A program made the translations under genes and the position numbers. A stretch of DNA of 61,795 nt, the filler included, from Hausera hauseri (Eukaryota), in the NCBI GenBank assembly GCA_046269625.1. It is 10 parts of 10 records of this genome, joined end to end, with 100 filler letters (N's around TTAATTAATTAA, not from the genome) between each part and the next. Parts side by side here need not be neighbours in the genome. Positions count along the whole stretch, not along the records: positions 1 to 11,267 come from JBJURY010113320.1; 9 more parts are not named here. The stretch is one strand, 5' to 3'. This document shows positions 1 to 52,808 of this stretch, one piece after another (the first letter of the stretch is position 1; the number at the start of each line of letters is the position of its first letter). The notes under the pieces are model-generated. The model worked only from the letters and a program-made list of their open reading frames with translations. It had not been told where the DNA came from and did no database searches.

Positions 1-643
1 ACTGTCCTCTTAACTATATAGATTTCAAGTAGTGAATTTAATATCTTAGTGTAGTCTAATCGTTCTTAAGGATCGAAGAAAAACTATAGAAGAAATTAAG
101 TCTATTTAATAGAAAATATAACTTTTACCAAAAATTTTCGATACAACACTTCGATCGTTCACCACAGATTGATAATAACCAATAGTTCGGAATTTTCGCT
201 AATTTCGATACTAGAATGACGATTGTCTCTGGTTCCACTGCTTCGTTTAACTGCGACTGTATGAATTCCTTTCGGTAACTTTGTCGGACTTATCCTTCGA
301 TTTTCAACTCCAAAATTGTTCTGCTCTATTCTGAACCCACTCGCTATTTATACTTTCGCTTACGACGATTACGTCATTTTTATCGATTAAATTCACTTAT
401 TATCGGTTTTGTGTAATAATTTTGATTTTCCGATAATAATCAACTTTCATAGGTGTTTGTAAATTATTCTAATCTTGCTAATTCCATTTTGATTAGTAAA
501 TAACTGCTGATTAATAAATAACTATTATAATATACAATTCTAATGCGTACAGCTACGTAACAAAATAACTATTATAATCGTAGGATTCTAATATGTACAT
601 CTACGTAACACATTTTTACAATCTTTCTGTCATTTCTACAACA
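1..643 (-). repeat. 3' LTR of element A1 (distal end not defined)
   Basis: Minus strand starts TGTTGTAG right after a purine tract; TATA-like GTATAAATA at about 345-352; no 5' LTR present for comparison. Confidence 0.6.
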
Positions 644-655
644 ATTCTCCTCCCT
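644..655 (-). promoter_or_regulatory. Polypurine tract of element A1
   Basis: AGGGAGGAGAAT on minus strand directly before TGTTG. Confidence 0.65.
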
Positions 656-749
656 GAACGGCACTCTCGGATGTGCCCATTGCGTCAGAAGAGGTGCCGC
701 GCAAACGGTTCCTTCGTCCGCGTAGGTCCGCTTCCGAGTCTGATTCATC

Positions 750-1166
750 TCGCAGATATCACGGGTCGAAGGGGTATGACGTAGCTTCCGCTCTACATAC
801 TGGGCAGGTCGTTTTCCCGTTTTTCAAGATCCAGTATTAGTACCGACAGTATTTGTGGGTGCAATCCTTATTATCCAATACCACAAATCCTTGGAATAGA
901 TTTACATCGCAAACGGGGCATTCCTCTTTTTCGTTTGTGTCTATGTCTACAAGGTTTTTGTCCACCTCAATGTGTTCAAATACGAGTCCCTTTCTATCTT
1001 TGTATAAATATCTATATAATCGTTTTTGTTTAGGGTCTATAGAGCTTTTCTTGGGGTCATCTGACACGGTAACCAATGTCCATTCAACGATTTCTTGTTT
1101 ATCCAAGTCGGCTATTCCGGTTCTCTTGTATTGTCTCTTAAGTTGCACTCGAACTTGGGTATCCAC
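750..1166 (-). pseudogene. C-terminal RING-finger (C3HC4-like) segment of the A1 3' accessory ORF
   Basis: CPVC...CTHKYCRY*YWILKNGKTTCPVCR; last Cys pair continues in the same frame past a premature stop at 837-839. Confidence 0.75.
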
Positions 1167-2723
1167 TGGGATAGTTGATTGGTTCCTTTTTGCGACTGGA
1201 ATATCGGGTTTTGCTCTTTCTTCATTGATGGGTATAAGACTGCTAGTTGACGGTTTTATTTATTCAACTTGGTTCTTACTGGTCTTACTTTTCTTTTTAC
1301 TAATATATTCAAGGGAGGTAGTTTTCATCTTTTGTCCTCTCGGTAGTTTTCCAATATTCAGCTTTGGTCCTTCCATTGTCTTTTTAGGAAATAATCCAAT
1401 CTCAGTTTGGGTCTGACCGATTGATGGTTTTTGCTGATTTGCTGGACGTTGCGACTGGGTTGTTTTGAACTGTCACTTGGAAACTGTTATGTCCTTGGGA
1501 TTCAATTTGTCTATATATTGGATATTTACTAAATCCTTTTCGAAATTTTTGAATAAAGATTTTTGGATTGTTGTCGGACATTATTTTCTGTCTGGGTTCT
1601 CTTGGTTTCCACTCGTGTTCCCATCGTAATGAGATGTAAACATCTCTTATAAGTCGTGTTCGTTGACTTTCTGCCATTAACTTTGGACATCTGAATTGTT
1701 CGCCATTCATGGCTTCTAACAACATTTTGAACTGCGATTCACGTGATGCTGAAGGAAGTAAACATCCCCTTTTCCTCATTAGGGTGTTTTCTACTCGGTT
1801 TACAACCGTTGGATTGCGACTTAGTTCTCGAATCCCTTCTATATATTCCTGTCTAATTCCTAGCCTTTCTAGCATTTCGTGTACTCTGAATCCGGTTACG
1901 ACGAATCCGTATAAGCGATGGCTTATGTCTTCTTGAATTCCTAAAAATCTTTACCCTTTTCAAGTTGTAGTTTTGTGATTCCGGTAATGTCGGCAAATGT
2001 ATCCTTTATTTTAATTCAAGGTGCGATTATTTTGTTTATTATTTCCTCTCCGTTTATACTTCGGATGGAGACTTCGATTGGGGTGTATCATCCATCATCC
2101 ATTTTTCCATAATTTACGGCTAAGATTCGAATATTCCGGCCGTCAGGAACTAGTCTGTAAGATTCTCTACTTTGTTAAATCTCATCTTCCGAGGGCTTCT
2201 GCATGCATAACAGGGGTGGTAATGGTCTCATTATTTCAGTTCACAAGGTTAATTCGAACATTAGTTTGGTCGGAAGTTCGGCGACTCTGAATTATAATGC
2301 ATAGTCCATGAGACTATGACAACACAGCTCGTATGTACTAAATTTACACTGTTGATCTCTGTGTATTTCAGGATTGTCTTACGATTCTGTACTGAATTTC
2401 TCCATCAGCGACATGTATGTATAATTGCTGATACGTTGGTTCATACGGAATCATATCTCTCAAAAGGTATGCTCGTGCATCCTTCGGACTTCACGTCGCG
2501 TATAATCGAATTAGTCGATTGTCCTCTAGACCCCATTTCAATCCATTCGGTATTCTGCTTTCTTGATCGATTTCTGCATAAGTTTTGTTTTTTAGATTTT
2601 CTTCAATTTTGGGATATAAGCTTTTGGTTGTTGGTTTGAGAACTGTTACGCGTTGCTGCAGGAAGTCATCGATATCGTAACTGAAACTGTGTGCTGGTTC
2701 TTCGGCTTTTCGGCCATATTCTG
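1167..2723 (-). pseudogene. A1 3' accessory ORF of unknown function (fragments 2491-2745 and 1402-1875), probably expressed by splicing
   Basis: Co-oriented ORF pieces starting at a TTTTATTTTAG acceptor; start is homologous to the region after 40244 in relative A2. Confidence 0.5.
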
Positions 2724-2894
2724 CTAAAATAAAAATAAAGGTCAATCCTAAGACAGATCATCGTTTTCAAACAAAACATTTTCTCTGTCTGATGACAGGA
2801 TAACCCGATCTGTAATTGTCAGGTTATGCTATCATAAAGTTTGTTTTGGTACCCTTTTTCCCGTTTATCCCTCTGTTGATTTGTACGTCACTTA

Positions 2895-4118
2895 TTACAG
2901 TTTTTTGGAAACTAAGAAAATCGTCGCTGTTAATATGATAAGAACGAAAATTGACAAACTTATTATAGCTATCATCGGTAAATTGTTCGTTTTAATCAAT
3001 TTTTCCGTGGTGATTGCATTTCGAGTTCTCATTTCTTTATATTGCATTACTTGCACCTCGTCGCTTAAGGTTCGAACCGTTAGGGTTTTGGACCTCCTAC
3101 CCTCTGCGGTAACTTGTACTATATAATCATTTTGTGGTCGTAGAGCTCTACACTCGGTTCCTTGACCATTTTTCCTTAAGATCACAATTTGGTTGGTATA
3201 CAAAGTACGACATATAACCTTAATTTTGTAGTCGAGTGCTTCTTCGACGTAAAATACAATTTTATCAGATCGCACCAAAATCTTAACGGGTATGTCTTCC
3301 AATTCCTTTTTGGTCAATTTACTTGTCGGGACGATGTTGGTAGTGAGAGTCGTAGTTGGAAAAGTAGATGGTTTTCTCGTAGATTTTGGGAACGGTAGTT
3401 CCCATATTACGTCCTTGGGGCGGTATCCTCTCAAGTAAATATTCGGCTCTTTTGGGTAAGTATTATACAGATCGAATTGTAATTAGTAGTTGTATCCTAA
3501 CGGCAACTTACCACGCGCAGTGAGCCGTCGGCGTGCAATATAGCAATATTCTGGGATGGGAGTTGAAGCATTTAATGGTATAAATCTATTTTGGTTATGA
3601 TTCGAATACATTGGTTTTTGAAGTCTTTAGAAATTTCTACAATGTTGAAATCTAAGAGTCTTTTAAATGGGTCGGTGTTTTGCGATATCTTGTCCGTCTT
3701 GTTTTGATTAGCATCGTTACGTTGATGCATTCTAATTTCGTACTCAGTAATTATATGGACTTGGGCTCCAGGCAGATTATAGAACACTTGGGATTTGTAT
3801 TTGTAGGTTAATTCAAAATCGCAACATTTTCGATTGGCGCCATACGGAAAGTCACATATCTTCATTGCGGAGCTATATTGGTCTACAATGATTATTTGAA
3901 ATGTGACGTGGTCCTTAACAGACTCGCATTTCTTGAACCATGCGCATGGTTTATTCCAGTCCATATTGTAGACTCTAAGTGACTGCAAATTTTGCATATC
4001 CGTACGTCTTTCTGCATATTGTTGCTTTTCAGTTAAAGTTATTGATCTTATCTTCGGTATGTATGAAGCGATTAATGACGGCAAGAACTATTCATACATA
4101 TGATTTCGGCTTTGTCAT
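2895..4118 (-). pseudogene. Second membrane protein of A1: signal peptide, Cys-containing ectodomain, Thr-rich stalk, FN3-like domain, C-terminal TM helix
   Basis: MTKPKSYV*IVLAV-LIASYIP leader; TFPTTTLTT stalk; FN3-like LRPQNDYIVQVTA; TM MIAIISLSIFVLIILTATIFLV followed by SKKL. Confidence 0.65.
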
Positions 4119-4149
4119 TATTGATGACGTTTTCTTTTCTTCCTCGGTT

Positions 4150-7100
4150 CGACTCAAGGTCTTTTGACTTGAATGCAGGTTATAGCGTTTATTGGGCCTT
4201 ATTTCCGTTTTAATCATTCTTTGGATTGATACTACTTCCGTGCCGTTTTATTAATGTAAACGGTAGTTGGTGCGGCTCTGATGACTTCGTAGGGTCCTCT
4301 GCCCGTTCGAGTGAGTTTCAGAGATATACCCGTCTGCTACGGGGTAGTGTACATAAATCCAATTTCTTTGTTCTAGGTCGTGTTGTTTAGCTTTCTTGTC
4401 GTATTGCTTTTTAAATTGTCCTTGGTATTCTTTGGATAACTCCTTGGCTATTTCCCAACATTGCTGTAGTCTCCTCTGTAGTACTTCGACAAAGTTTTTC
4501 TCTAGATCTTCTGTGTTCGCTATATACGGTATCATTCCTAAATCTGTGGGCAGAGCAGCTTCCCTGCCATACATCATAAAAATGGAGTGAAACCTGTTGC
4601 AGGATGCGGTGTAGTGTTTATGGCGAATTGCGTGCCTTCTAAAAATTCATCCCAGTCCTTTTGGTCCTTCGCAACTTCTGTTAATAAGATTCGTATAACT
4701 GTTGCGTTTATTCGTTCGACTATTCCGTTACATCGCGGATGGTAAGTCATTGAGGTTAATCGTTCAATTTCAACTATTTTGGTAATCCTTTCGAATAATT
4801 CACTCGTAAAGTTTCTTCCTCGATCTGTCAAAATTTGTTCCAGGGGTCCGTATCTACAGATAATTTTTGTTACCACGGTTTCTGCTAAAGTCTCGGCCTT
4901 TTGGTCCATTAGAGCCATTAGTTCAACAAAATGGGTTAACCGATCTATGCATGTCAGAATGTATCTGTTGTTTTTATGAGTTGTAGGCAACGGTCCTATG
5001 ATATCCATGGATAATTGCTTGCATCGGCCTGTCTGGCCCGTGTATTGGTTTAAGTTCCGGAATGTAGTTTTTCACCTTCCTCAATTTGGTTGCGCATACT
5101 TCGCAAGCGTTTACCCAATTCTTCACATCGATGTACACGCTCGGCCAGTTATACTTATTGAATATTCTTTCTAATGTCTTCTTCCACGACATGTGTCCCG
5201 CTAAATACGAGTCATGTTTGGCCATTAATACGTCTGTACGCAATCCCTTTGCTATGACTACTAATTTCCGTCTTTTTCGTCCATAATACAGTATGTTTTT
5301 ATGCTTCGTGTCTCCTGCTATGCAGTATTTGCGACCGTGTCTTTGGCATTGCCTCGTTTTCGACAAATTCGATGATCTGTTGTATAACCTTGTCCTTCTT
5401 TTGTTCAACCGAATTTTTAATTACTTTATACAGTGTGAGGGCTCGCTGTCTATCCATTAGCTCTTCGAGATGAGCTTTTTTCATTACCGTGATCGCGCTT
5501 TTTTTAGTTTTAAGCCTTGACAGTGCGTCGGCGTCGACATGTTTACTTCCTGGTTTGTACTGAAATTCAATATTGTACCGTGAGATTTCTTCGATCCATC
5601 TGTTAAGTCTGCACGTTGGGTTATCTGCTCTGCCTTTCAAGGTAGTAACTTCTTTGTGATCTGTAACAATTATAATCTTCTGTTCGTAGACGTATATGTT
5701 AAAATGTCGTAGAGCTTCTTCCACAGCCAACGTTTCTAACTCCGTAACCGAATATTTTTTTTCGGCTTTCTTTAGAGAGCATCCTCCGTATGCGATCGGA
5801 TGTTCCAAATCTTCATCTTCTCGTTTCTGAGCTAACTCTTACCCAATATCTTCTTTACTTGCATCCATCTAAATTATAAATGGTAAGTTAAAATCAGGAT
5901 ATCTTAAAACAGGTTCACTAATCAAGATTTTTTTCCTTTCGTCGAAAGCCCTTTGCTCGAGGTCGGTCAATTTCCATTTTCCTTTTTAAGCAATCGATAT
6001 AGATGCGGATTTATTTTTGAATTATCTGGCACATAAGTGGCATAGTATTCACATAAGTCTAACCAATTTCTTAACTCCTGATTTTGAGGTTCCTTACAAT
6101 CCGATATTTTACTTAGCAGTGATCTGTCAGGTTTGGACCCTCCTTTTCCGACTATATGTCCAAGATAAGATACTGCTTTCTGAGCCCATTTACATTTGGG
6201 GTTTAACTTCAATGCGGATTGTTCTATCCTCATGAGCTTATCTTAAATGTCCTTTAAATGTTCTCCTTCTGTCTTTGATGCAATCATTACATTGTCCAAA
6301 TACGCGAACGCGTGTTCCAGTCCCATTAACATCTTGTTCATCATTCGAGTAAAAGTGACTGGTCCAGTGATTATCCCGAATGGCATGACATTAAATTCGT
6401 ATACACCGTCATGCGTTTTAAATGCAGTTTTGTATCGATCTTCCTCAGTCTCTACCTGTCAGTATCCAGATTACAGGTCGAGTGTGGAAAGTCTATCTAG
6501 GACTTCTTTTACTGATGGTAACGGGAAAGAATCTTTCATAAATGTATTTAGCGCTCGATAATCGATACAAAATCGATGCTTTGTAGTACCTTTCTTGACC
6601 ATAAGTATAGGTGAATACCAAGATCTATAGCTTGGTCTAATTATGTCAGCCTTTAGCATACATTCAACTTCTTTTGTTATCTCAGGCCTTAAAGAGTGTG
6701 TGGGGGATATTTCGGCATCTTTTGATCCTCTAAGTCTTTCATCATTGGAACCTGACTTTTTCTTAAGTGGAATTGTTAGTCTCAAGGCTTTGGCTCTGCC
6801 AATGTCCTCTTCGTCTCTAGCGACGACCGAGCTATATTGACAAAGTAGTTCGTAAAATCGACAGTATGCTTCTGCTGAAAATTTAGTTTCGACGTGAGGT
6901 GGAAATTCGACACATTTGTAAAGTTTTTCTTCAATAGTTATTGACGATATTCTATACGTATAACCAAAAGTGGTATTGGCATACAGTTTGATCGGAGTGG
7001 GTGCATTATTCGCTATTCTAACGGGCACATGGTCCGTCGATACTCTTGTTAATACGTTACTGAGTACGATGTTTGGATTTAACGATTCCTTTGGTTCAAA

Positions 7101-7630
7101 ATACACTGGCTGGTCGTCATCTTGACGTATCTGACATATATTAATACCTCGGTTCTCAGTGGTATGTTCTGGTCCACTGGAATCCATACTTCTCCGAATT
7201 GCCTATATTTTGTGATTTTAACCCCTTTTATCGGACCGAGCTTTATTAATTGCCCTGCGTGGAAGTCTATAGCTATATTAGGTAATTTCCAGAACAGATC
7301 ACATCCTAATACTACATCATTTGTTATCTGTTCCATTACTGAGAATTCGTGGTGGAAAGATTGTCTCATTATATGGACTTCTGGTCTCCATCGGAATTTA
7401 CTTTTCGGCCATTGTCCAAAAGCTCCGACACTTTCTGGGTCTGTTGCTGGAGGTGGATATATTTTTTTGTGTAAGCGCTGCGGTATTGAATTATACTTTT
7501 TCAGTGATATTTCAGATCCAGTGTCTATTAATGCGTACACCTCCCAATCTTCCAACTGAATTTTTGCAAAGGGCCTACCTTCGATTATCGTACCATGGTT
7601 GGTGCTATCTTTGGACGTCGGACGGTTCAC
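4150..7630 (-). pseudogene. pol: Gypsy pol of A1 (protease, dUTPase-like spacer, RT, RNase H, integrase), frameshifted
   Basis: ALIDTGSEIS; FCIDYRALN; YLDN (decayed YLDD) near 6290; YSVTELETLAV and TDHK; HHCC motif HDSYLAGH...CEVC; DIIGP/TDRGRNF/GIVERIN; GPY motif RGPYEVI. Confidence 0.95.
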
Positions 7631-8160
7631 ACCTTGTAACCGTTGATAGTAACTTCGGTCGTTCCGTCTGGCTGATCAATTAGTTGTCTTAATTCGCCAA
7701 TTGGGTACAATTCATTACCTGTGCTATATATGTTTTCCGTTTCCTGACTTCTAATTGGCGGGTGGGTTTCTTGGTTTCGAAAATTCTGCGCTTCACGATC
7801 TCTCGAAAATGTTGATCGTATTTCGTTTGGTCTGGGTATTCTAGGTGAATAAGTTATATCGTAATCGTCGACTACTGAACGACGATGTGGAGCAGACGTT
7901 CTTTTCGTTTTGTGCATTTTGCGTAATACACCGTAGTGCTTTGTTTCTTCATAGGGATCCTCGAGGTTAAACGGTTCTCTATAGATACCCGTTTGGTATG
8001 AACACAGATTGTTTCTCAGTCCTCATAAATAGGTGCAGGCGGTGGAAATATTGGCAATGGAGGTTTAATAACGGAATAATTTTTGTGTCTATTCATCCTG
8101 GAGACGGCTCGTCATCGTCAGGGTTGTTCCTTCACGTCTTTACTCTTGTGAACTTGTGTT
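7627..8160 (-). pseudogene. Pro-rich linker between glycoprotein TM and protease, with late-domain-like motifs
   Basis: KPPLPIFPPPAPIY at about 8025-8065; YSPRIP; ELYPIGELRQL at 7681-7713; homologous motifs in ORF 52008-52769. Confidence 0.55.
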
Positions 8161-8165
8161 AGTAA

Positions 8166-10045
8166 TTAAATGTGCCTCCTTTTACGTTTCCGATTATGAT
8201 AACCAACATGACGCTCCACGTCCGCTTTCCATCCATTTTCTTTATAAGCCTTTAAGAATTTACCGAAGGGTGTGACAATAGCAGTTAAAATCTTACATGA
8301 GAATCCTGTCAAGGTGAAAATCTCGTATCCATTTATGATCGCTTGAATTATCGCTTTAACCAGCTGGATCAAGAAATAGATTACTAGAAATACTGTCGCG
8401 GCTTGTCCGAATATCAGAAATCTTCCCCAAATTTTATACAATATTTCTGTTGTTATTCTTTGATAGTAGTTGACACCTAGTAATGATTCCCATTTTGTTT
8501 GATAACGCGAATCTTCTAGTATTGTGTGTATTGTTCTGTTTAATTCATGTGTGCGTTGGCGTGTGAAAGCTAGAAATTATCTTAATGCCTTTACTTCCTT
8601 CGGTCGGTAAATACCTTTTGCGGCAGTGTTCTGGAACTTATCATCGGTTATTCCTTTTATTAGGTTCGTTCTCGTTAACTTGGTGGGTGGAGCAATTATA
8701 CCACCGTTTGGTAAACTTACCCAATCGGTTTCACTACGTCTAAATATTGGTTCGCCTAGGCTGGTCTTTAAGTCTCAAAATCGTTGGTTGGGTAGAGTTC
8801 GCCAGCAATACTCTAGTGATCGGTGTTACTAATCTTGGTATGTCCTGATATATTATTGGAAGTTCTTGTATACATCTCTTTTCTTCCACGTTAATAGGTA
8901 CATCCTTCTCATATTCATAGGTCAGAACTCCGCTCACTAGGCCAAAAACGCCTTCCTTCATTGGAATTATTGGTGATGCGAGCTCGGGATTGGCATATAT
9001 CAAAGCTAGTTTGGTTCTCATGACTTCTAAGTCTAATTTGCAGTCGTTTGTTATCATTTTGTGATATAACTCAGCTATTCCAGGCTGCCATTTGTAATAA
9101 AAATAGTCGCTGTTTTTCAGATAATCCTCAATCCGAGTAGCTTGAGTCTCTAGCTTAAATGTACTGGTTTTTATTTCAGTCTCGGCTACAAAGAACGCTT
9201 CGTAATTAGTGGCATACATTGCTACGTCACATCTGGTAAGTACGTCTTTACGAACTTTAATCCGTGGGCGTCGGAAATTAATATGGTGGGTGTAGGCTGT
9301 TCCGCTACAACCCCTCACGTTTTTGAATTTGTATTTGTATTACTTACGCAGCGTTTTCCTGTCGTTCCGTTAAACGTAAGTTCTTTAATTTTAATAAAAT
9401 TGCAATCGGCCTTGGCTGGAAGTTCCCAAATTACTACTGAACTTCTAAAACAGGTGCTGTCTTGGATATGGCAGTTGGTTTTCCGTATAGAGCTTAGTAA
9501 CGCTATGGAACATCACTTTTTCTGTGCGCATTTCAGTTTCGTAGAAATCCACAACTACTATGTTCGACTCTAATCCCCTTCCGGTATCATATTCTGCGCC
9601 GCTAGTGTCCAGTATGCATATCTAGTCGTCCTGCTGTTACTTTATACACTCTGATTATTTTTCCTTCTTGTATATCTAGTTCCATGCCATCCCATTTTAA
9701 CCTACCAGTTTCTCTAGCTTGTTTACAGTGTAGGCGTTCTAAGCTCATCAGAATTGGTGGGTTCGTTGGTTTAATTATAGACGAGTGTCCGAGTATTAGT
9801 CCACAATGGAAAATGCTGCGAGATCGTCACAACATATACTCTTCCGTCTAATGCGATTAATTCGCGCTGTTGATACAGTAGTAACTTTTCTCTTTTGTTT
9901 CTAACTTGTGAGGTCTCGCGTCTTCGCACATTTCTAGATCCATTAATGAATATCTTTGGCCCAGTTTGAATTTTTCGCAGTCGTATATCGTAACTGCCCC
10001 CATTTGTCTTATTAACATCATCACGGTCAAAAAATTAATTGACCG
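8166..10045 (-). pseudogene. env: Class III-type viral fusion glycoprotein (chuvirus G / herpes gB-like env)
   Basis: Signal peptide then IYDC; SIFHCGLILGHSSII...CKQARETG; YATNY; NDCKLDLEVMRTKLAL..ANP; RCIQELPI...TPITRVL; C-terminal FGQAATVFLVIYFLIQLVKAIIQAIINGY TM block, all typical of chuvirus-like G. Confidence 0.8.
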
Positions 10046-11245
10046 GTATGACGTGTTTCCTCTATTATTTTCGGTTAATTTCCGCAACATGTCTTTGACT
10101 CGGCAACTGTCAAAAAGGGCCTATGTCGATGTTTCTCCTCTTTTTCAAATAATTCTGACCAATTTACTTCTGACAGCTTTCCGCGCTAAACTAGTGGCTT
10201 TGTTATATTCATTTTCTCGAGCTGGATTTGTTTTAATGGCCAGATACAGTAGTACATTTCTTAACTCTTCTATGGTATTCTCTACCATAATTTTTTCGAT
10301 CACCGATTCATCGCTTAGGGTGCTTCTCGATAATTTACAGCGAAAGTTTTTCATTGTTCTGGCTGCACTTAATATAGATTTTTCTTTTCGACTAATATTT
10401 CGTCACACAGACTAGAGTGGTTTATTATGCGTATCAAATTTTTCATAAGTTCATTCAGCTCCTCGTTTTCTGCACTAAAGGTTGGTATGGACATTTGCCT
10501 CAAATCTCTAATTAAATCCCAGTTAAAATCAGTCTCTTCTTGTGCCTTTCGCGGTCTATCAACAGGACGCTTCTGTTTCGCTATAATTGGTACGGTCTCG
10601 CCAGACGGCACTAGATTCTTATCGTATTGTTCTTTGTTTTTGTCCGTTTGCAAGTCCTCAAAGTACATTGTCACATCTTGAACTCCCACGATTCGTCCTA
10701 CACTAATCTGTTTTAGCCTTCCTTGTGGCTTCTTCTTTTGTCTCCTCAATGGCGATCGTTACTATTATTCGATTCGTTTCACCTGGGATAATTCCGACGT
10801 CTATCAATTGTTCCAGTTCGTCTAATATTCTACCTCTAAAGTAAAGTCTATAGCCCAGTTCGCTTGCCCAATCATTACTCATTAGCCACTGTACCACATC
10901 TCTTACGAAAGAGCGCGTAGTTAACTCTTGCTCTTTTTCGTCCATCCAGTCCGATGATATTTTTACTTTAATTGCCTCTTCGGGTTTGGTCCTTAAAACT
11001 TTAGCATATTCCTTTATTAGAAGTTTCGGCGCGGCACTATAGATTGTACCTTCACTGGATAATTTAGTCAGAGTAGGAACTAGTTGTCTCAACTGATTTT
11101 CTGTAAGATTTACATTAATTAACTTAATTAAATCTTTCTCAGTTTGCTCTGAGTCCAGAAGCATTTCCACATTGAATCTCTGATTCGACGGGCATATCTC
11201 CGTTTCGTACAATCGTACGGGGGTTTTCGGATTTTCCTCAACCAT
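10046..11245 (-). pseudogene. N-terminal ORF(s) of A1 with a ubiquitin-like domain (10751-10975) and a possible degenerate capsid-like segment
   Basis: IKVKIS...VRDVVQWL...YRLYFRGRILDELEQLIDVGI...RIIVTI follows the ubiquitin beta-grasp pattern; IPTFSAENEELNELM weakly resembles a Ty3 CA start; 10145-10354 is in frame with the glycoprotein signal. Confidence 0.55.
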
Positions 11246-11267
11246 TGCGTCTAAATATGCATCCCAT

Positions 11268-11367
11268 NNNNNNNNNNNNNNNNNNNNNNNNNNNNNNNNN
11301 NNNNNNNNNNNTTAATTAATTAANNNNNNNNNNNNNNNNNNNNNNNNNNNNNNNNNNNNNNNNNNNN
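11268..11367. other. Artificial contig linker N44-TTAATTAATTAA-N44 (also 23686-23785, 27855-27954, 33082-33181, 37747-37846, 43521-43620, 47713-47812, 52809-52908, 56934-57033)
   Basis: Identical 100-bp structure nine times; core gives stops in all six frames. Confidence 0.98.
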
Positions 11368-11691
11368 GTCACACTATTGCAATCCATTTTTTACTTCCGT
11401 ACGTTTTTCGGCGCGGTTCTCATCCTGCAGTTTTCAAGCTACGTCAACAAATCATAAATCAAAACATCCAGCTCGTTCAGGAGAAGGGAGCTATGACTTT
11501 TGGTATTGGTGCAACTTTAGCTTTTTGAAATATTTAGCCTTTTCTCATAGAAAGTGAATTGATCTCATTTTACATCCTACGCTTCTTTCAGCTTCCTGGT
11601 GCAAATTTAAACCTTTTCTCAGCTACTTTCAGCTGTTTTTTTTCCAGCTGTTTTTTTTACAGGTGCAGTATTAATTTTATTTTTTTACCAG

Positions 11692-11825
11692 GTGCAGTGA
11701 AGTACCTAGAGTGCTCTGCTCTGACGCAGCGCGGCCTTAAGACGGTGTTCGATGAAGCCATCAGGGCGGTCCTGTGCCCCCAACCTCTCAAAAAGCCCAG
11801 GAGAAGGAAGTGCATCATATTGTAA
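11692..11825 (+). CDS. RAC1: Last coding exon of a Rac-family small GTPase (vertebrate-like); 3' UTR-like sequence to about 12130
   Basis: Phase-1 acceptor ttttaccag|GT; [29 protein letters not shown], polybasic tract and CIIL CaaX; exact Rac paralog uncertain. Confidence 0.85.
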
Positions 11826-12134
11826 TGGAGATCCAAAGCAATTAGAAAACACAGCAAGACCTCACCTTCTTGAAGGAGCAAAGATAAAAACGAGGTTCCT
11901 TAAAGTATTTTTTTTTATCCTATGTCCTGGCTAACATGAGCCCCTTTCAGACTTTGAATCTGAGCCCGAGAAGCCTTTTCCAGCACTGGTGACATGTGTG
12001 AACTGACCGAGACAGAATGGAGTGTTTGAAGCAGATTCACTGATACACCTCTGAACCACATATGATGGTAGTCACAGAGCTGAGATGGTGGGTATGTGTG
12101 AGGGCGAGCCAGCGCTCTGGCTCTTGTTGATTTG

Positions 12135-15100
12135 ATAAAATGATGTCAGAATCAGGTTTCGGTTAAGCTAAAATTTCGACTGTTTTAAGCTTATCGCGGA
12201 GTTTTTCGAACTGGTTAACAAGTTCTGATGTCCAATATATGAGCTTTTTATTCGGCCCTGCTCCTAGTTGAGTGAAAGGAGCATTTAACTGGCTACAGTG
12301 TGAGATGTATTTATGGACAAAATGTAAAGTCCCAAGGAAACTACGCATGTCAGTAGTGGTTTTTGGTATCTCGATGTTTCATAGATAGTGGATTCTATCA
12401 GGCTGTGAACTGTGATTGTCAGTTGTGATGACATGGCTAAAGAAATTCACCTTTTTCTGGAAGAAGGAACACTTAAAAAAGTTTACTTGCAAATTGCACT
12501 TGTGCAAGCTTTGGAAAACTAGTCTGAGATGTTCTTTATGTTGTTTGGGCAATGCGACTAGTATGTCATCAATGTACGGATATACAAATGGCAAGCCTGA
12601 AAGAACTGAATCAATGTGCCGTTGGAAAGTTTGTGCAGCGTTTTCTAAACCGAATGGCATGAATGCGTATTCGAAAAGACCCAAAGGTGTTATGATGGTC
12701 GTTTTGGGATGTTTTATGGTGTTACCGGTATTTGGTGGTAGGCTTTTTTAAGATCTATGTTTGAATAAATCTTAGTTTTGTGCAATGAATGTAATATGTC
12801 CTTAATCAAAGGTAGAGGATAAGCGTCCATGGTAGTGACATTATTTAGTTGGCGATAATCGCCGCATGGGCGGAATGTGTCATATTTTTTCGGGATGACG
12901 TGAAGTGGTGATGCCCACGGTGATTTTGACCGTTTTATTATGCCAGCTTGTTTGATTGCAGAGAATTCCGCTTGGACTGCCTGTCGACGCCGTGGTAAAA
13001 GTGGGCGGGGTTTTTGCCTAACGGGCCTAGGATTTTCTGTGATGATATGATGAAGCGTCGTGTTAGCTGGTCGAAATGCTGGGTCTTTTTTATTGCGTGA
13101 AAACAAGACTTGGTTAAATATTGTTGCATTTCCGGGCTAAATGTAGTAAAGGCTGTTGTTATTATAGCAGTGGACAGATTGGATTTAGTGTCAGAAACGC
13201 TAGAAATTGAGTCGCCTAAATTGTCCTTGTCAATGCCTTTTGTTCTTCTATTACTGGACTGAAACAAATACGTTGGACTATTTATATTTGTATTAATGAC
13301 GTTCTTATTTGCGTCGGCTGATGGTTCTTTTAGTATCGATTTTATAGGCCAGGTAGGTTGCGTGATTTGTTGGTTATTTGTAGAGGTAGGTTTTGTGGAA
13401 CTGCTTTTGATGATCCGACGTTGTTTACAATCGACAAGGAGGTTGTAGAAAGATAAGAAATCAGATCCAAATATTAGAGATTGTGCATCGGCAACGATGA
13501 ATGTCCAATTGAAAATGTCGGAAAATGGTGGTAAAGTGAATGAAACCTTGGACGTGCCAAAAATGTGTAAAGTTTGGCCGTTAGCTGTGTATAATTTATT
13601 GTTAGATGGTGAGATGAATGGTGTTTTGATAGATGGTGGTAACAAAGAAACGGCAGTCCCAGAGTCAATTAGGAAGTTGATGGGTTGATTGGGTTTTGAC
13701 GTTAAGGAGGCTTTTAATGTGAAAACAGCGTAGATATGGCTATTAGATTGAAGGCGTTTACCTGTACAAGTATGTGCTGAAACATCTGGCGGCTTTGTCA
13801 ATTTTTTGGATAGTAGGATTTGGGGAGTCGGGAGAATTACGATGGAACTGGTTAAGTCGACTGGAAAACGTGCAACGGTTGATGCAGTTTCGGGCTTTAT
13901 TGCTGAACCTATTATAGTAAATACAAACGATATCGGATTTTTGAAAAGCTGGTGTAAAGAATTTACACCCTAAGCAACATTTTTTGGAATGATCCTTGAA
14001 TTTAGTGTGATTATAGCACCCCATATGTCGAGTAGGGGACCTAGCAGATCTCAAATTTTGCGATGAATCACGGCTATGATTGGGTGTGAATCGACCTCGT
14101 CGCGGTATGGATAAATTGCCCAGTTTCGAAGTTAAAGCAGAAATGGCTTGGTGTACTGCCGTGTTTTCAGCCCGAAAAGCGCTTATTTGGTTATTCAGCG
14201 CTAAGATTTCAGTGTTACATGGTGTCAAAGGTGGTTGTAATGTGGCTGCGATGATAGGAGTATAGTGTGCATCTAACATTTCATAGCTTTTATCAACCAA
14301 TTGTGCTAACTTTTCTAGCGTAGCGATGTCTTCAACGATGGTTAGTAAAGCGTGTATTTCTTTTGGTAACAATTGGAGGAAATATATACGCAATAAGTCG
14401 GCACTGTTTGTCTGGTTTATTCCTAACTTGATTAAGTGGGTTAAAGATTTTTGTAAAAACTCTGAGGGTTTCTGATTTCTTGTTGAATTATCATTAAAAT
14501 ATTTTTGGATAACGTTATCCAGAGAAGGCTCATTGAGTTTAAAAACGGCTTTAGATAGTGTCTCGTATGGATCTATGGTTTGGAAGATTTTGGAAAGATT
14601 TGGGAGCAGTGATTTAATAGTGGCTGGCAAGAGTATTAATAGACTATTTGCTTTGAAAAAAGGATCAGTAATGTTATTTGATTTTAGCCACTGTGCATGG
14701 AATTCTAGCCATGTACGACTGGAATGTTGTCTATCTGTAAAATAGTCGACACAAGGGAAATTGTCCAAAGAGGATGTTTCAGGTAGAACAAAAGGGGCTG
14801 CTTTAGAGGAAAGTTTATGGTAGGAATATCGGTGAGTTCCTGAGGTTCGTTTAATGCAGATTTGGTGTCGGAGCCACCGAATAGACGTAGACATAAAGTT
14901 ATTATTAGTGGTGAAGGTGGGGATAAAAGGATGATATTAGATCGGAATAATGAAGATGATATCCGTTTATGCTTAGTGTGTAGCCTTTTAAGTTAATGCG
15001 ATGAGCCAAATCTTAAAACAAATCTGCTACTGTTGCTTTAGTGTGTGCGGTGTGTGTGAATGTTTATTTTGAAGGAAAAAAAAATAGGGAAAAAGGTGAG

Positions 15101-15255
15101 TGCCATGTCAGGGGCATAGTGCGCTACCGGGAACACGATTGCGCCAAAACCACAGGTGCTGAGATTCGGGTAGTGTTAACGGTGGGTCAAACGCCGGAAC
15201 TGCCACTTTATAATTTTCACCTGCTGGCCTGGACGCACTGGTCTTTAGACGCATT
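12135..15255 (-). mobile_element. Gypsy family B copy 1 (leader, gag 13805-14894, PR, RT; truncated before RNase H)
   Basis: Gag with CYNH...CCLGC...CINRC motifs; FLIDSGTAVS; SPWASPLH, PCGDYRQLN, YIDD. Confidence 0.92.
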
Positions 15256-16030
15256 GTAAAAACGTATTTTTCTTCGGAAGTTTGACGTATTTGGTATATT
15301 GTATTATTTTTAATGACGAACAGAAAACAAGTTAAATATTGGTCTAATTCAGAGTCTTGTCCAGACAAAGTTGAATAAATATCGACCAAGTAAATAAAAT
15401 CGTCAAAATCGATGATTTGGTTATCGCGAGAAATTACTAGAATGCGACTTATCAAGTCTTGACAACACAACACCGGGGTTTTCGACCAACATTATGACGC
15501 GATCTGAACCGCAAATAATATCGTGTACGTTCATTTTGTAAGGGAAAAACTCCATCGTCAAAATGGGAATGTCATCCCGTAATTCAGTGTTTAAAACGTT
15601 TTCATTGTATATATTGGAATTTTCGTTGATATTAAACTCAACAATATTATTGGAAATTCTAATAGAAGTCGGAAAATTACCGCTAATTATTTCCTTTTGT
15701 AGAAGTGTAAATTTTGAAGTGTTTGGGTAAGTGGTCATTGGAAAATCCAAAAATATGATGTTAACACATTGGAAAAATGGTGAGAGTTGGTAACAGAAAA
15801 TGTGTGTAAGTATTCAATCAGTTTTATACAAAAACTAAATCTCTGCCAAGATGTTAAGTCGTTTCTGTAAACTACAAAATCTTTTAAATGCCTAATAAAT
15901 TTACTGTGTTCATAATAAGTGAACAATGCATAATAAAGGGAAATAGGAAATTCACTGACCTTAAACTGTATCGGCGTATCATTAAATCTGGTAATTCCAA
16001 AGCGTCTGTGAGAGTACGACAAAGATTTTT
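15256..16030 (-). pseudogene. Intronless fragment of an unidentified protein gene, fused between Sec7 fragment and Gypsy leader
   Basis: Overlapping ORF pieces 15108-15473, 15421-15750, 15735-16022; duplicated at about 18850-19620. Confidence 0.45.
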
Positions 16031-16034
16031 TTGA

Positions 16035-16200
16035 AATTTTGCTGATGACACAAAATCCTTTCGGAAAAAGTCAAACTGATCCACGTATGCATACATGACC
16101 TCGATATTATACTTGTTATTTTCACCAAGAAAATCTCCAATGGCCGTTTTTTCAAGTCGTTCGTCTTTGTATAAAAATTCCGCAATGTCATCCGATAAGT
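16035..16200 (-). pseudogene. Sec7 domain fragment of a BIG1/BIG2-type (ARFGEF) Arf GEF
   Basis: DIAEFLYKDERLEKTAIGDFLGENNKYNIEVMYAYVDQFDF..KDFVS. Confidence 0.85.
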
Positions 16201-16399
16201 CAGATTTTGAGGACGCTGTCGGAAGATTGTGAATCGTCGAGTACAATGACCTTGATATCAATGTAATGTAATTCAACTATTCTCGTTTGACTTTTGGAGA
16301 CGTCGGTTATTTTCGTCATTCGTGCGTTCAGTTCACAGCTAACTAAAATATTCTGAGACTTGTTCACTTGTAAACTGAAAGTAAAATTCTTTTTCCCAT

Positions 16400-17845
16400 C
16401 CAGTCTTTATTGTAGTATTCATTTATATGTTTTCTGATAGCATGTCGCTTATACATTACCACTGATCCAATGTATCTGTAATCTTTGGTCAGGTGATTTA
16501 TGAATTGGAAAAAGTTGTCGAGGTATTTGATAAAAGTAAAATAACACTAAAAATTTTTTTGTTCGACTCCAGCATCCCGTGAGTTTATCATTGTCTTCAT
16601 TATCGCTGTCATTTAAACCATTTTCTTTAATCAACAATTCCTGTTTCACATTCAATTGCAAATCATGGATCCTTACTGGAACAGTGTGACATGACTCTTC
16701 AGTAATAGTTGGTGACATTCTTGGCTTGATGTTAGATTTATTGATTGTCTTACTCGGTACAGTGCTATTAGATCGATTGTTGAATGGTCTATTAGAAGGC
16801 TTAGTCGAAAAATTGATGTTCGCAACCGGTTCGTAAGAACTGCCTACTGACTCCGTTTTCGGTGTAACAGAACGCATCATGCCTTCTTTCAGTTGGAAGC
16901 CTGCCAAACTCATTGATTTGGTTAACATGTAATGCTGAAGATCGTATATGCCAGACACGGACATGGATATATTTCGTTGATCGGTATCTTTTTGACTATC
17001 ATCATGTCTGTTATTTCAGGATCTTCGCAGAATAGAAAATAGTCCCCAGATGTTAGCACAAGATAATGTTTGTTTGGCAGCGGCTTTCCATAATTTTCAC
17101 GAGTACTTTCAATATGCCGGATTTTTCTTTTGATTTTGGCAAATAATCTTTCTTCTTGAATCATTTCCTCTTGCAATGTCGCAGTCATTTTCCGATTAAT
17201 CAAGAATGCTCCTCTCGACACAAATTTACTTTTGATTTTAAGAGCCAACACTACTTGAAAAAGGACTTAGTCGTGAATACTTTGCGTTGTAAAATCAAAA
17301 GCATGAAACACAAAATATCTCCCCAAAAGTCATTATTCATACTGGGACGATATAATACGTCAAATTTCGAGACCATGTCATGCCATTTGTGCATTGGATT
17401 TCGATGAGTTTGATCAGCCAACAGTAATTACGATTATTCAGTGCATTGAGATAAACACATCCTACTAGATGAAGGCCACATTTGATGAATATAACGGTGT
17501 AATTGTAGAATAGGATTATGTTCCATGATGATATAATATACTTCCGCTTGTTTTGCAACATTTGAAATCCGATCCAGAAGTAAACGGTACTTAAAATCAT
17601 GTATCCCAATGAAAATATTGTTGGTTTAATAATTCCGAGAACAAATACGGCTGTCAGGCAAAACCAGTAAAATTGATAAAAAATAAAGTATTTTATATAT
17701 TCAACGAGTGATGATTTTTCACAGATAAAATCCTTCTCTTCAATATAGGGCATATCATTGACTAAGGTTGGAATGTTTCGTGCACCTTTGTAGTCAAATG
17801 ATTGTTTTTCAATACGAAATACGTGGTACTGAAAATGCTTTGTTC
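16400..17845 (-). pseudogene. PIEZO: Intronless internal fragment of a Piezo mechanosensitive channel
   Basis: FYWFCLTAVFVLG...IFSLGY...WNIILFYNYTVIFIK...CWLIKL; DILCFMLLILQRKVF; SRGA; SGDYFLF. Confidence 0.88.
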
Positions 17846-30900: not shown

Positions 30901-31467
30901 ACGTGGGTATGACTATATTGAATCTGTAAAAGATTAATGTATCATTTCCACTACGATATAATTGTCCCCAAGTTCAAATGTGTGTAGCTGATGTATATGG
31001 ATACTGATAGTTTCATCTATCAGATCCATACAGACGATATTTATGAGGACTTTGCCCAGTTGGCCCAACATATGGATACCTCGGACTATCCGAAGGATCA
31101 TCCCAACTATTCAATTGCCAATAAGAAAGTCCAAGGGAAATTTAAAGTCGAGGTGAATGGGGAAATCATCTCGAGATTTGTAGCTCTGAGATCCAAAATG
31201 TATGCTCTAGACATATGTGGTCAGATCAAAAAGAGGACCAAGGGCGTTCAAAAGGCTACATTGGCCAAGAAGATTGGTTTCTATAACTACGTGAAAGTTC
31301 TGCAGGAGCAGACACACATCATATCAGAGATGCGAAGGATCCAGTCTTGGGATCATAACATCCATACAGTAACACTGCATAAGAAAAGCCTAGATTGGAT
31401 GGATGACAGGAGGCAGATCCTGAGCGATGGAATCCACACACAACCTCACGGACATGTGGCATTGTAA
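27955..31467 (+). pseudogene. pPolB copy 2, near full length
   Basis: YCDFE; VRDHCHFTGAYRCAACNNCNL; FHNLSGYDSHF; RKGVFPYDY; DANNLY; NSVFGKTMEN; YMDTDS; GKFK..LRSKMY; DDRR...PHGH. Confidence 0.95.
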
Positions 31468-38299: not shown

Positions 38300-40700
38300 G
38301 CTTTGTGCCAGCCCCAAACTTCACAAGAAAAGTAATTGCGGAAATATCGAAAATATTTCAAATACTACAGCTGAAAACAACCCCGTATCATCCGCAAACT
38401 AAAAGAATGATAGAAAAATTTAATGGAACCTTAACTAACATTCTGGCAACTATGGTTTTAGCACGGGAGGGTTAGTGGTACGAATACATTAAACCTTGTT
38501 TATTGGCAATTTGAACACAATTCATCCCGCGACGAAAGAAACTTTATTTTATTTAATGTACCTCAGGGATTCTCATATGCCAGTCGACATAGATTTCAAA
38601 TTGCCTGTGTCTCGTCTAAAGGATATGGAGTATAGAGTTATTAGAGGAGAAACCTGCATGTGTGGAATCTGACTTCACGACATATAAAATTTGCCAAGAG
38701 TACAAAGATAGCTATGATAAAAAAGCAAAGTTGCATAACTTTAAACCAGGAGAAAAAGTTATGCTACATACGCGTTTGAGTAAGAATAAAAGAACGCCAA
38801 AATTGGATGGACCATATAAAGGCCCTAACACAATTCAGAAGGCAGATGAAACTAACATTTTCCTCAACAAAACTAAGAGGAATAAAACAAACCCAATAAA
38901 AGTCCACGCGAATCGATGCAAACCAGCCCCACCAGAATCGAGACAAAGAAATGAAAATTTTAATTCAATAATAATAGCAACACTCACAATGCTAAGCTTA
39001 GTAACTTGTGTATAGGCTGAGGCTTTAGATGTACAATATAAAGTCTATCAAGTTGGACAATATTCTTGAATAAAAGTTACGGCCAATCGAAATCTAACAA
39101 CAGAAGAATATATATACATATACCTTCATTATATAAAGCAACACCAGAAAATTGTGATCTATATTATAATCATTCAACCCACATCTATTGTAGACTTTCA
39201 TTTGGTACATCATATAGAATCCAATACGCTACTGCAAAAAGAAGTCAGTGGTATAAATCGTACTTCTCATATCCTGGTTCGACTTACTATTTCTACCAAC
39301 CATATTTTATACTAAAGTCATAAAAAATGGACCGTGTGTGACGGCAGAACCAGAAGCTTTAATAACAAAGTATCGAATTGTGAAATACTCGATCGTAAAC
39401 AAAACGTATACCATAGAATGTAAACCAAATTATCGAAACCCATGTTTATGCTGTCCCTTTTCATTTTTAAACAATATCAAATATATTATCGAACTACAGT
39501 CAATGGTTATACGTGGTCGACAGCGTCAGATGGACCCGAAGTAATGATAACATCTCCGAAAATAACAACTACCTCTACCCGGACGACATTATCTACTATA
39601 ATACCTCCAGAAAAAGTGGCAACTGGGATTAAAAGGATTTCCAAAGAACTGGGCGTGATAATCCAATCAACGGCACACTCCTTGATTATTATAGTATCCG
39701 ACCTAACGAATACTAATGTGAAATTTGAATGCTTAATTCACAACAAGATGGCTAGTGAAGGAGTATTAACTCCGAACGAAGCAACATCGGCCTGCATGTT
39801 CCTGAAANNNNNNNNNNTACGAAGAAAATTATAAAAACAACTACTATTGAAATTGTTGAAGAAATTTCTAATAAATATTTCTGGATGGTTATTACGCTAG
39901 GTACCTTTTTAGCATTGATAATTATAATACTATTGATAATAATCTATTGTTCTAAAGACGTAGAATGCGCAAGACCCCAAATATAATACGACAATTAAAA
40001 TTATTAAGGGAAGGTTCCCACAATGAAAACCTTCCCAAGCTGAAAAGCTACTAAATCTTGAACGGCAAACTCGACCATTAATGGACGTTGCACTATGTGT
40101 GCACACATAATAGATGAAGGCGCAAAAATTTTAGCGACATACAAAAAAATAATTATGAAAAATCTCGGGTTGCAAAGCTTTACGCAACCTACCATAAAAT
40201 TTTTTAAAGATTTCCATGGTTAGTATTAATATATTTTCTTTCAGTTCACGAAGGTCCAGAAACAGTACAGAGGGCCAAATCCTTCTATTACAACATCGCC
40301 ACTAACCTCAATTCAACCGAGAAAAAAGATTATATGTATTATGAGAAAGCATCTCTGAGACCAAACAATCTTAAGGGACATCTCGTTTCTCAGAGAACTG
40401 CCATCATCTTCAAATTACCTAATACGTAGACAAAATTATCAGATCTAATCGATATTTGGCGAAAACGACAGCAGTTTACATATCAGTGCTGAAGGCTACC
40501 TTACAATTAATAAGCAGAGCTTACAGAAGCAATATAACAGACTCATTTGATGTAATTCCCTTCTTTGCTATTCGATTAGACCAGCGTCTATATAAAAACG
40601 CCACAATAATATTAAGACCTTTTGGAGGACCAAGCCTGTTGTTTCTGTATCATGAGAATAAAGTCCAATTCGTTCAAAAGTGAATCACAACGACAAAATT
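38300..40700 (+). mobile_element. Fragment A2, relative of A1: integrase C-half, in-frame signal peptide, FN3-like TM protein, spliced downstream ORF
   Basis: TTPYHPQT..IEKFNGTL; KLDGPYKGP...VHANRCK; SIIIATLTMLSLVTCV; KITTTSTRTT stalk; TM FWMVITLGTFLALIIIILLIIIY at 39879-39947; acceptor at 40244. Confidence 0.75.
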
Positions 40701-40849
40701 GAGCATTAAGAAACATTTCAATTTTTTTAAATAATCAATTTCTTTTATCAATCTGATTATTTGTCATGGCTTTATAAAATGTTATAAAACAATATCACAG
40801 CAATGCACATATTTACAATTACGATAGCACTGATAAGAAGATATGATAC

Positions 40850-49540: not shown

Positions 49541-49544
49541 CTGA

Positions 49545-51899: not shown

Positions 51900-52808
51900 G
51901 CAGTAAACAAGACCATCACGCTTACTTCTTTTAAGGTATTCCACGTACTGTTAATCTCTATTTGTAGAATTCAAAGTTTGTTCCAGCTGATATAATACCA
52001 AATTCCTTCACCACTGAGCCTGCAACAAGAACATCCTCTTTCGATATACCATGTCTTCTAATAAAGATAAAATGTCCATACTAACTACTACTTCATCTAC
52101 TAATTCTTTCATTATCCTGAATTTGGCTTGTACTATTTCTCCATAAATTAGTACGTCAGTTTCCCAATAGGCTACTAAAGTTTGATAATTTCCAAATACA
52201 TTGGTTCCACATGGTAATATTTCTGGAATAGTCAATTCGCATTTTTTATCCTCAGGTATCAGTGATTCTTTTATAACTGATATCGAGGCGCCTGTATCTA
52301 CCAATGCTTTGAATATCAAGCCACCGACTTTAATTAGAGTTCTTGGTCTTTTATCAATTTTTCTGCGTATAGTTGATTTTAAATGAGGGTCAAAAATTCC
52401 TTCTGTGTTAGTTTCTTCATCTATCATCGAAATAGTAAAGTTATTCGTTCCAAACACTACTACATTAGTAGGGTTGTTTTCGTCCATTTTTTCTCGATGT
52501 TCTTTTAACTGTTTCATTGGATATAATCTCGGACTATCAGGTTTGATCACGGATAGTCTGGCATACTTTTCACGTTGTTCATAAACATCGTGGATTGAGA
52601 CTTCATCGTAAGTCTTTTGAGTAGTTGATAAACTTTGTTTATTTTGCAGAATCTGGTTTAACTCAGAATTTATGAGTGGCATATTAGTTAATGGTGATGC
52701 TGGTCTTCTTGGACTGTATAACATCACATCTGACTTATAATTAGGTGGAGCAGTTGGATAATCTGGCAATGGTTTTAATATTGATTGGTATGGTGGTTGA
52801 AAGTTCGG
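51900..52808 (-). mobile_element. Fragment A3, relative of A1: late-domain linker fused in frame to protease (ORF 52008-52769)
   Basis: PTAPPNY, YSPRRP, LYPMKQL, then RP...ALVDTGASIS; colinear with 7079-8070. Confidence 0.75.

Follow-up and report, generated by a model that had tools for sequence, protein, structure and literature searches.

A decayed Ty3/gypsy element of Hausera hauseri with a gB-type glycoprotein before pol and a candidate second membrane protein after integrase

A locus in the Hausera hauseri assembly GCA_046269625.1, in which a viral-type glycoprotein lies in front of a gypsy-type pol, raises the question of whether it records an independent env capture, a nest of unrelated pieces, or a member of a lineage already in print. 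The window (the whole stretch of DNA analysed, 61,795 nucleotides, filler included) strings together 10 short contigs with N spacers between them, and the element copy occupies positions 1..11267, with all parts on the minus strand. As the window is made of joined short contigs, position 11267 is a contig end and not the start of the element; the contig breaks before Gag, leaving a 5′-truncated copy whose Gag capsid and zinc knuckles would fall beyond 11267. The copy is dead, carrying about 12 frame changes as well as stops. Read along the minus strand, a helical plus ubiquitin-like (Ubl) domain comes first, then the glycoprotein and PR-RT-RH-IN, and last a membrane protein of FN3-like type and what is left of a RING ORF. 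We consider it highly probable that this is a dead, 5′-truncated Ty3/gypsy copy with a gB-type glycoprotein before pol, likely a divergent Burro-like (Gag-Env-Pol) element, whose working form would be one polyprotein predicted to cross the ER membrane twice. Elsewhere in the window, gypsy elements on other contigs adjoin host gene pieces (Piezo, Sec7, ABC).

The signal sequence and chuvirus/gB-type glycoprotein span 8166..10045, as defined by PF24664, tblastn, reading frames and hydropathy, and survive as about seven pieces with six frame changes and one stop in the last piece. Specifically, PF24664 (Monjiviricetes_fusion) matches at 9826-9605 (E 0.063, profile 80-132), 9339-8743 (E 3.4e-11, profile 269-424) and 8576-8169 (E 1.2e-15, profile 517-603), the three matches being collinear with the profile, and hydropathy places a TM near 8396-8346. 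The glycoprotein is 25-37% identical over long pieces to nine relatives in tblastn, and we infer that it is a class III fusogen. Its TM is joined to the protease by a Pro-rich low-complexity spacer (7627..8165), which has a similar counterpart in relatives and gave no convincing Pfam match; the window copy carries a mononegavirus-type fusion glycoprotein between the Gag tail and protease. A word-index search with the middle glycoprotein piece returned nothing among 425 candidates.

Downstream of the glycoprotein, the Pfam domains RVP, RVT_1, RT_RNaseH, Integrase_H2C2 and rve follow in gypsy order. They correspond to an aspartic protease in one copy (7082..7675; RVP E 5.9e-5), a spacer, reverse transcriptase and RNase H with five in-frame stops (5302..7202; RVT_1 8.8e-12, RT_RNaseH 1.5e-21), and a frameshifted integrase comprising H2C2, core and C-terminal part (4235..5420; Integrase_H2C2 9.5e-16, rve 5.1e-12, tblastn). 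In a PDB search the RT matched Ty3 best (E 1.7e-39), followed by caulimovirus-type (2.7e-23) and foamy (1e-14) enzymes, and it is 40-45% identical to the RTs of gypsy-type relatives with env before the protease; with a gypsy-type Pfam set and Ty3 as top match, it is not a BEL/Pao RT. PF24664 followed by RVP and a gypsy-order Pol bears out the original prediction of a Gypsy-lineage element whose chuvirus/gB-type env precedes the protease. A word-index search with the integrase core returned 19 generic LTR polyproteins, none with a listed glycoprotein domain.

Upstream of the glycoprotein, positions 10706..11266 encode a helical domain and a ubiquitin-like domain that together form a Gag C-terminal extension. 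This ORF (11266-10706) aligns over 148 aa with the Gag tail of relative L002 (tblastn E 1e-6), scores 47 bits against a profile of six relative segments, with none of 200 shuffles as high, and matches Rad60-SLD_2 at E 0.035, placing a Ubi2/SUMO-like motif upstream of env; the L002 domain itself matches Pfam ubiquitin at E 3.3e-5, below the cut-off. Single-sequence AlphaFold gave no usable fold for the ORF (pLDDT 42.5). The broken helical region that follows (10085..10560) lies at the site of the relatives' Bcl-2-like domain, for which structure prediction supports a Bcl-2 fold. In the window copy the domain is undetectable with a profile of five relatives (1.2 bits, 4 of 200 shuffles as high), a further comparison with the relatives gave no match either, and none is seen by eye in relative P0022. 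We had considered 10560-10150 as a Gag capsid remnant and dropped it; the capsid in relatives lies upstream of the Ubl module, and Gag with N-terminal CCHC knuckles is present in L002, P0029 and P0102.

Relatives repeat this layout in single open frames 2,600-4,800 aa long, their parts following the order seen in the window copy, which is collinear with P0022 from signal to integrase (tblastn). Among the 11 best glycoprotein relatives, nine encode glycoprotein and protease within one protein, the protease coming second. Env is in frame with gag and pol in P0102, P0029, P0033, P0036 and L003, and frameshifted in the window copy; P0096 and P0102 also carry ankyrin. A (Gag)-Env-Pol polyprotein, as proposed at the outset, finds backing in intact relatives that encode one such polyprotein together with a second membrane protein, but in L002 a stop separates the Gag tail from the env signal. 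In the glycoprotein tree the window copy nests inside the protease-followed clade, and its RT also groups with env-before-PR relatives in a tree without a named reference, on an unstarred branch with bootstrap not settled. The window branches are long (RT 1.28, G 1.77), and the RT falls outside the seven-row core of relatives. Scans for related loci found none in viral contigs, none in prokaryote genomes and at least three in metagenomes. One of the top relatives carries an NCBI label as a protein of a Flavobacteriaceae MAG, which points to animal contamination in the bin.

After the integrase, positions 2898..4087 hold the remnant of a second membrane protein, outlined by profile, Atlas and hydropathy: a beta-rich ectodomain piece (4087-3575), a Thr-rich stretch, an FN3-like repeat and a TM (2981-2931). 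The piece 3482-2898 scores 19 bits against a profile of eight relative repeats, with none of 200 shuffles as high, while the piece 4087-3575 is not significant against that profile (0.7 bits). This repeat profile alone found the link, tblastn of the relatives' post-integrase regions against the window giving nothing significant, and hydropathy flagged no signal peptide after the integrase in the window copy. In relatives, a signal-ectodomain-TM module follows the integrase in all seven that run past it, and an LxPxTxY-like pattern occurs in five of the seven proteins; the L003 ectodomain does not match the repeat profile. The module is likely FN3-like, judging from Atlas leads that score 0.84 (the window piece) and 0.89, both below 0.9 and of low recognition; Pfam gave no FN3 match in this protein. 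The summed depth of contigs is low across 3009-4136 and high in the adjoining TM and env, though contigs cannot rank the parts.

Taken together, these parts suggest how a working element might be made. Gag, Ubl and, in relatives, the Bcl-2-like domain would stay in the cytosol, an internal signal would send the glycoprotein into the lumen, and the glycoprotein TM would return PR-RT-RH-IN to the cytosol, after which a second signal and TM would display an ectodomain of FN3-like type. Cleavage by host signal peptidase and by the protease of the element would then separate the parts, and budding particles would carry the class III fusogen. Attachment or cell contact would be the likely task of the FN3-like protein, a candidate second 'envelope' protein, and the likely effect of the Ubl, Bcl-2-like and RING modules would be to dampen the host's ubiquitin and cell-death responses.

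A different role for the post-integrase protein within the same lineage has an appreciable, if minority, chance of being right: it may act in the producing cell as an immune decoy, as an antagonist of restriction or as a factor for superinfection exclusion, and not as the particle's attachment protein. FN3 repeats also build cytokine-receptor ectodomains, the Atlas leads include IL11RA, CRLF2 and OSMR clusters, and neither the number nor the position of the module is constant, L001 having an extra copy between proteases. Against this, the protein is made from the fusogen's own polyprotein and is kept in seven of seven relatives. Herpesvirus gB needs a separate receptor-binding partner, which also counts against a decoy, although rhabdovirus G needs none.

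The 3′ end adds less certain parts. ORF remnants of no recognised family (1405..2860) have no credible Pfam match in any frame and none to the downstream ORFs of L001, and tblastn of those L001 ORFs against the window gave nothing significant. A broken ORF at 756..1472 ends in a C3HC4-like RING finger (920-795), which contains a stop and matches Pfam RING families at E about 1e-3 (zf-RING_2 0.0011, zf-C3HC4_3 0.0016), below the cut-off. No RING ORF was seen in either of the two related loci that reach beyond the main ORF, L001 carrying an RNase T-type exonuclease in that region, so the membership of the present one rests on its position before the purine tract. The candidate polypurine tract (645..655, read 655-645) is followed by TG, which opens a candidate 3′ LTR (1..643) whose far end is not fixed. 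A pairing of TGTAG with CTACA (640 with 54-50) could mark LTR ends and is expected by chance in AT-rich DNA. The order on one strand first proposed for the locus thus holds for Ubl, glycoprotein, Pol, FN3-like TM piece, below-cut-off RING and purine tract; the LTR boundary stays a candidate, the window holding one candidate LTR and no second copy.

Two fragments on other contigs had been taken to indicate a family. A2 (38317..39950, plus strand) contains an integrase end 33% identical to that of the element, then a signal (38968), an ectodomain (7 bits, none of 200 shuffles as high) and a TM (39891), as found by sequence comparison, hydropathy and profile; on this comparison it belongs to a more distant element whose 3′ end is laid out similarly. 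A3 (52010..52808, minus strand) holds only a Pro-rich stretch and an aspartic protease (RVP 4.3e-8), the protease being all that it shares with the element, at 27% identity. Neither contains env. The A2 accessory region was rejected as a homologue, 40000-41300 matching DUF5578 on the opposite strand. That this is one element of a family is backed by read data and relatives; A2, an integrase-to-TM end, and A3, a protease only, lend it weaker support than originally stated.

Comparison with described systems identifies the closest match as Burro/GYPSM1 of planarians. In the available text of PMC6431247, Burro reads Gag-CCHC-Ubi/SUMO-BCL2-env-Pol in frame, with env between gag and pol and Ubi2/SUMO-like and BCL2-like motifs before env; decayed copies of this type are given from D. 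japonica. Like the window copy, Burro has, between Gag tail and protease, an env homologous to the fusion glycoproteins of mononegaviruses, together with a Ubi2/SUMO-like motif upstream and PR-RT-RH-IN; it resembles the relatives in BCL2-like, CCHC and ankyrin modules and in ORFs of 4,000-4,800 aa. In contrast, the window copy is compact from env to integrase, with one protease and an undetectable Bcl-2-like domain, and the post-integrase FN3-like TM module and 3′ RING ORF are absent from the available Burro account. Burro is described there as exceeding 30 kb when its LTRs are counted, with a cargo of MATH, BIR, Smc and ankyrin; the window copy, truncated and 11.3 kb long, has no Pfam match to these four, and we therefore call it Burro-like, not Burro. 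A dUTPase-like region between PR and RT, reported for Burro by HHpred, has no Pfam match in the window or L001.

A second description, the available text of PMC13524379, covers GAG-ENV-POL 'ancient errantiviruses' with HSV/gB env from Platyhelminthes, Nematoda and Bryozoa, and equates the chuvirus-like glycoprotein with the gB type. These elements share with the window copy a Ty3/gypsy pol and a gB/chuvirus-type env before pol, and are intact where the window copy is broken. Flatworm envs there have cysteine-bridge configuration C1a, and six S. mediterranea env rows of this class resemble our relatives by eye; the main text contains no occurrence of ubiquitin, RING, fibronectin, Bcl or Burro. 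Burro-like membership is likely on this by-eye resemblance, the architecture and the trees without a named reference. In BEL/Pao, Anakin and other elements carry the same glycoprotein family (PMC7642597 and PMC10084718, as far as available), whereas the window RT is Ty3/gypsy-type. Bdelloid LTR elements, in the available part of PMC5408684, resemble L001 in their accessory 3′ ORFs, among which are DEDD exonucleases and small TM proteins, but those with extra ORF3s carry a paramyxovirus F-type env after pol.

The nematode endogenous retroviruses of Sacco et al. 2022 are reportedly metaviruses that took an env from an RNA virus and carry it before pol. They form a separate host-associated clade according to the available text of PMC13524379, and their likeness to the window copy is by description only.

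The original prediction had taken the locus for an independent env capture at an unusual position, but the layout is published (PMC6431247, PMC13524379, each as available), matching Burro/GYPSM1 and the GAG-ENV-POL errantiviruses, agreement with a described clade being one ground for refutation given at the outset, and both glycoprotein and RT group with such relatives. Capture by a separate gypsy lineage converging on the same position is accordingly improbable. [quoted passage not shown] Least probable, though by little, is a nest in which a glycoprotein of chuvirus or BEL/Pao (Anakin-like) origin and pieces of host genes came to lie in or beside an ordinary gypsy element: although the copy is broken throughout, gypsy elements lie beside host gene pieces on other contigs, and the TM-to-protease span appears in none of 16 contig pieces among the matches listed (17,723 further), intact single-frame relatives have the same order, the parts are on one strand and collinear with P0022, and the RT is Ty3-type, which largely refutes a nest for Ubl, env and FN3-TM.

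A divergent Burro-like element thus remains our preferred reading. A gypsy element with a gB-type env before pol and a ubiquitin-like module is already known, and no new class is opened by either feature; what is new to the print searched is the conserved second membrane protein after the integrase. We found no published description of this signal-ectodomain-TM module or of the 3′ RING ORF; the module may appear in Grohme 2018 and its supplements, Repbase, Sacco 2022 or the figures of PMC6431247 and PMC13524379. The relatives show the layout to be that of a conserved lineage with intact single frames. More tentatively, and less likely than not, Burro-like elements may be a broad lineage of two-glycoprotein endogenous viruses whose polyprotein is threaded through the ER twice, flavivirus-like, with a class III fusogen before pol, a captured FN3-type attachment protein after the integrase, and swappable Ubl, Bcl-2, RING, ankyrin and exonuclease modules, the present copy being a deep compact branch, possibly outside planarians. 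Such a division of labour between gB and a receptor binder, if true, would be undescribed for any LTR element. If the second membrane protein is an attachment factor, it would open to test the standing question of how enveloped gypsy elements outside insects recognise germline or stem cells and get into them.

The window was built from 10 short contigs with 100-nt N spacers between them. The element occupies the first contig (1-11267) and is read on the minus strand, with its 5′ side at the contig end. The adjoining contigs carry animal gene pieces, and the host is therefore an animal; they also contain further gypsy elements and fragments of protein-primed DNA polymerase B. This copy is dead: the pieces counted contain about six frame changes in env, the chuvirus/gB-type glycoprotein upstream of protease, and about six in pol, together with one stop in env and five in pol. 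Two contigs of the run X1 are identical to the window over 3443-3999 and 7336-7852, so the frame breaks there are probably real, with the caveat that X1 may be the source sample. The sequence has a purine tract and TG start at 655-640 (minus strand), and the window contains no second LTR. Single X1 contigs join 700 to 2902 and 1259 to 2447, skipping the accessory ORFs, and are possibly deletion derivatives of the family.

A Pfam scan of 25 pieces assigns PF24664 (Monjiviricetes fusion protein) to three collinear glycoprotein pieces, two of them above the cut-off, with RVP, RVT_1, RT_RNaseH, Integrase_H2C2 and rve downstream. The closest solved structure for the element's RT is Ty3. The RING finger, interrupted by a stop, falls under the cut-off (Pfam E about 1e-3), and the Ubl gives a Pfam E of 0.035. 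The first ORF (11266-10706, minus strand) matches the helical and Ubl module in the Gag tail of the metagenomic locus L002 (E 1e-6) and scores 47 bits against a profile of six relative segments; therefore, the Ubl belongs to the Gag tail, and the capsid is merely absent from the contig. By eye, the Gag tails of the relatives P0099 and P0102 each hold two tandem copies of this module. In L002, the frame is open except for a lone TGA (3058-3060) between Gag tail and env signal, which may represent readthrough or regulation, or decay.

A phmmer search with one glycoprotein frame, stops entered as X, returned 74 matches, and all 11 at E≤1e-10 were scanned. An aspartic protease follows the glycoprotein in the same protein in 9 of the 11; of the other two, P0023 ends downstream of its TM, and P0031 is a fragment of 215 aa. 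A single frame runs from glycoprotein through protease, RT, RNase H and integrase in P0022 (2627 aa), P0028, P0096, P0099, P0102 and the metagenomic loci L001 and L003, and Gag or CCHC sequence lies upstream in P0102, P0029, P0033, P0036, L002 and L003. P0022 is collinear with the element from signal to integrase. This full glycoprotein-Pol-TM retroelement polyprotein (HBK71150.1) is filed as a Flavobacteriaceae MAG hypothetical protein, and the record is likely animal DNA inside a bacterial bin. P0096, P0028, P0029, P0024 and P0102 each encode at least 2 aspartic proteases (up to 6 or more), some of them past integrase, compared with one in the element; ankyrin and C2H2 modules also occur among them.

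The glycoprotein tree (38 of 79 relatives retained, shorter matches dropped; quick method without bootstrap) places the element within a 17-row clade that holds all 14 protease-followed rows (SH-aLRT 98), separate from 22 stand-alone glycoproteins. In the RT tree (27 rows, P0020 excluded as copia-type), the element and all eight relatives with env before protease form one side of a branch (support 94/89); the element's own branch is long and does not fall within the 7-row core. By identity, the element's RT is closest to P0006 (47%), for which no env domain is listed. Both trees have midpoint rooting only and contain no named reference sequences.

The original prediction had read this layout as an independent env capture at an unusual position. 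The element's parts are real and were well read, and the core architecture is of an already described kind (PMC6431247, PMC13524379). PMC13524379, citing Sacco 2022, reports that Nematoda, Bryozoa and Platyhelminthes harbour GAG-ENV-POL elements whose env is of HSV/gB type, and six S. mediterranea env sequences listed there resemble the element's relatives by eye. Fragments A2 (38317-39950, plus strand) and A3 (52010-52808, minus strand), previously cited as repeating parts of the layout, are weak evidence for a family, as tblastn finds integrase (33%) and protease (27%) only. At 80% likeness, with the stretch split into 30 bins, 15,937 X1 contigs cover 30/30 bins and 1,505 contigs of X2, a second run, cover 29/30. 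Variant contigs at listed positions number 50 at 8392 and 67 at 9637 in env, 92 at 6910 in pol and 35 at 10638 in the 5′ module. These counts show that each part has many diverged copies in two organisms, and hold per part, not for linked parts; none of 16 contig pieces listed spans env TM to protease.

A second membrane protein follows integrase. A C-terminal TM is present in all seven relatives extending past integrase, a signal-like stretch after integrase is flagged in six of them and seen by eye in L001, and a pattern search finds a C-x-x-L-x-P-x-T-x-Y-like repeat in five. A profile of eight relative repeats matches window 3482-2898 (19 bits) and A2 (7 bits), each with 0/200 shuffles, and does not match window 4087-3575 or L003. 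In the Atlas, FN3 comes up as no more than a lead, at 0.84 for the window piece and 0.89 for L001, and Pfam gives no hit. L001 has an additional signal-FN3-like repeat-TM unit between protease copies (4754-5310) and, downstream (10617-12666), an RNase T-type exonuclease ORF and a coiled-coil protein ORF. 3′ of the post-integrase protein, L001 carries the exonuclease ORF, whereas the element carries ORFs of no recognised family and the RING. Neither the post-integrase membrane protein nor the 3′ RING ORF appears in the available text of PMC6431247 (planarian Burro/GYPSM1) or PMC13524379, and literature searches, whose reach excluded figures, Repbase and Grohme 2018, found no paper on the membrane protein.

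Elsewhere in the window, two inverted copies of another gypsy element (12132-16958 and 18089-22686) are 85-96% alike. The first adjoins pieces of host genes that seem poor in introns, Sec7 at 15887-16276 (E 3.5e-13) and Piezo at 16925-17843 (E 5.7e-21), and the repeat arms reach across the Sec7 region; these pieces are possibly host mRNAs captured by a retroelement. The same pattern recurs in broken DUF5578 gene pieces (40000-41300, minus strand, E 1.5e-10) and ABCA-like transporter pieces (49339-50937, minus strand, ABC2_membrane_3 E 5.6e-5), each beside a same-strand gypsy remnant. A C-terminal GTPase piece (11538-11825, Ras E 0.049) is presumably Rac/Rho-like. Several decayed protein-primed DNA polymerase B genes with an endonuclease VII-like part, which we take to be Polinton- or adintovirus-like, lie at 25164-27400, 28800-31467, 34300-36236, 46188-47756 and 53700-56700.

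The order of parts and the single-frame relatives are observed directly. Topology, together with what is established for class III fusogens and for viral polyproteins that signal peptidase processes, suggests how the product would be threaded: Gag-Ubl-(Bcl-2) would lie in the cytosol, the glycoprotein in the lumen, protease through integrase back in the cytosol, and the ectodomain of the FN3-like protein again in the lumen. The polyprotein would be cut by its own protease and by host signal peptidase; particles would bud, and the gB-type protein would drive fusion. The FN3-like protein may serve attachment or cell contact, and the cargo modules may modulate the host.
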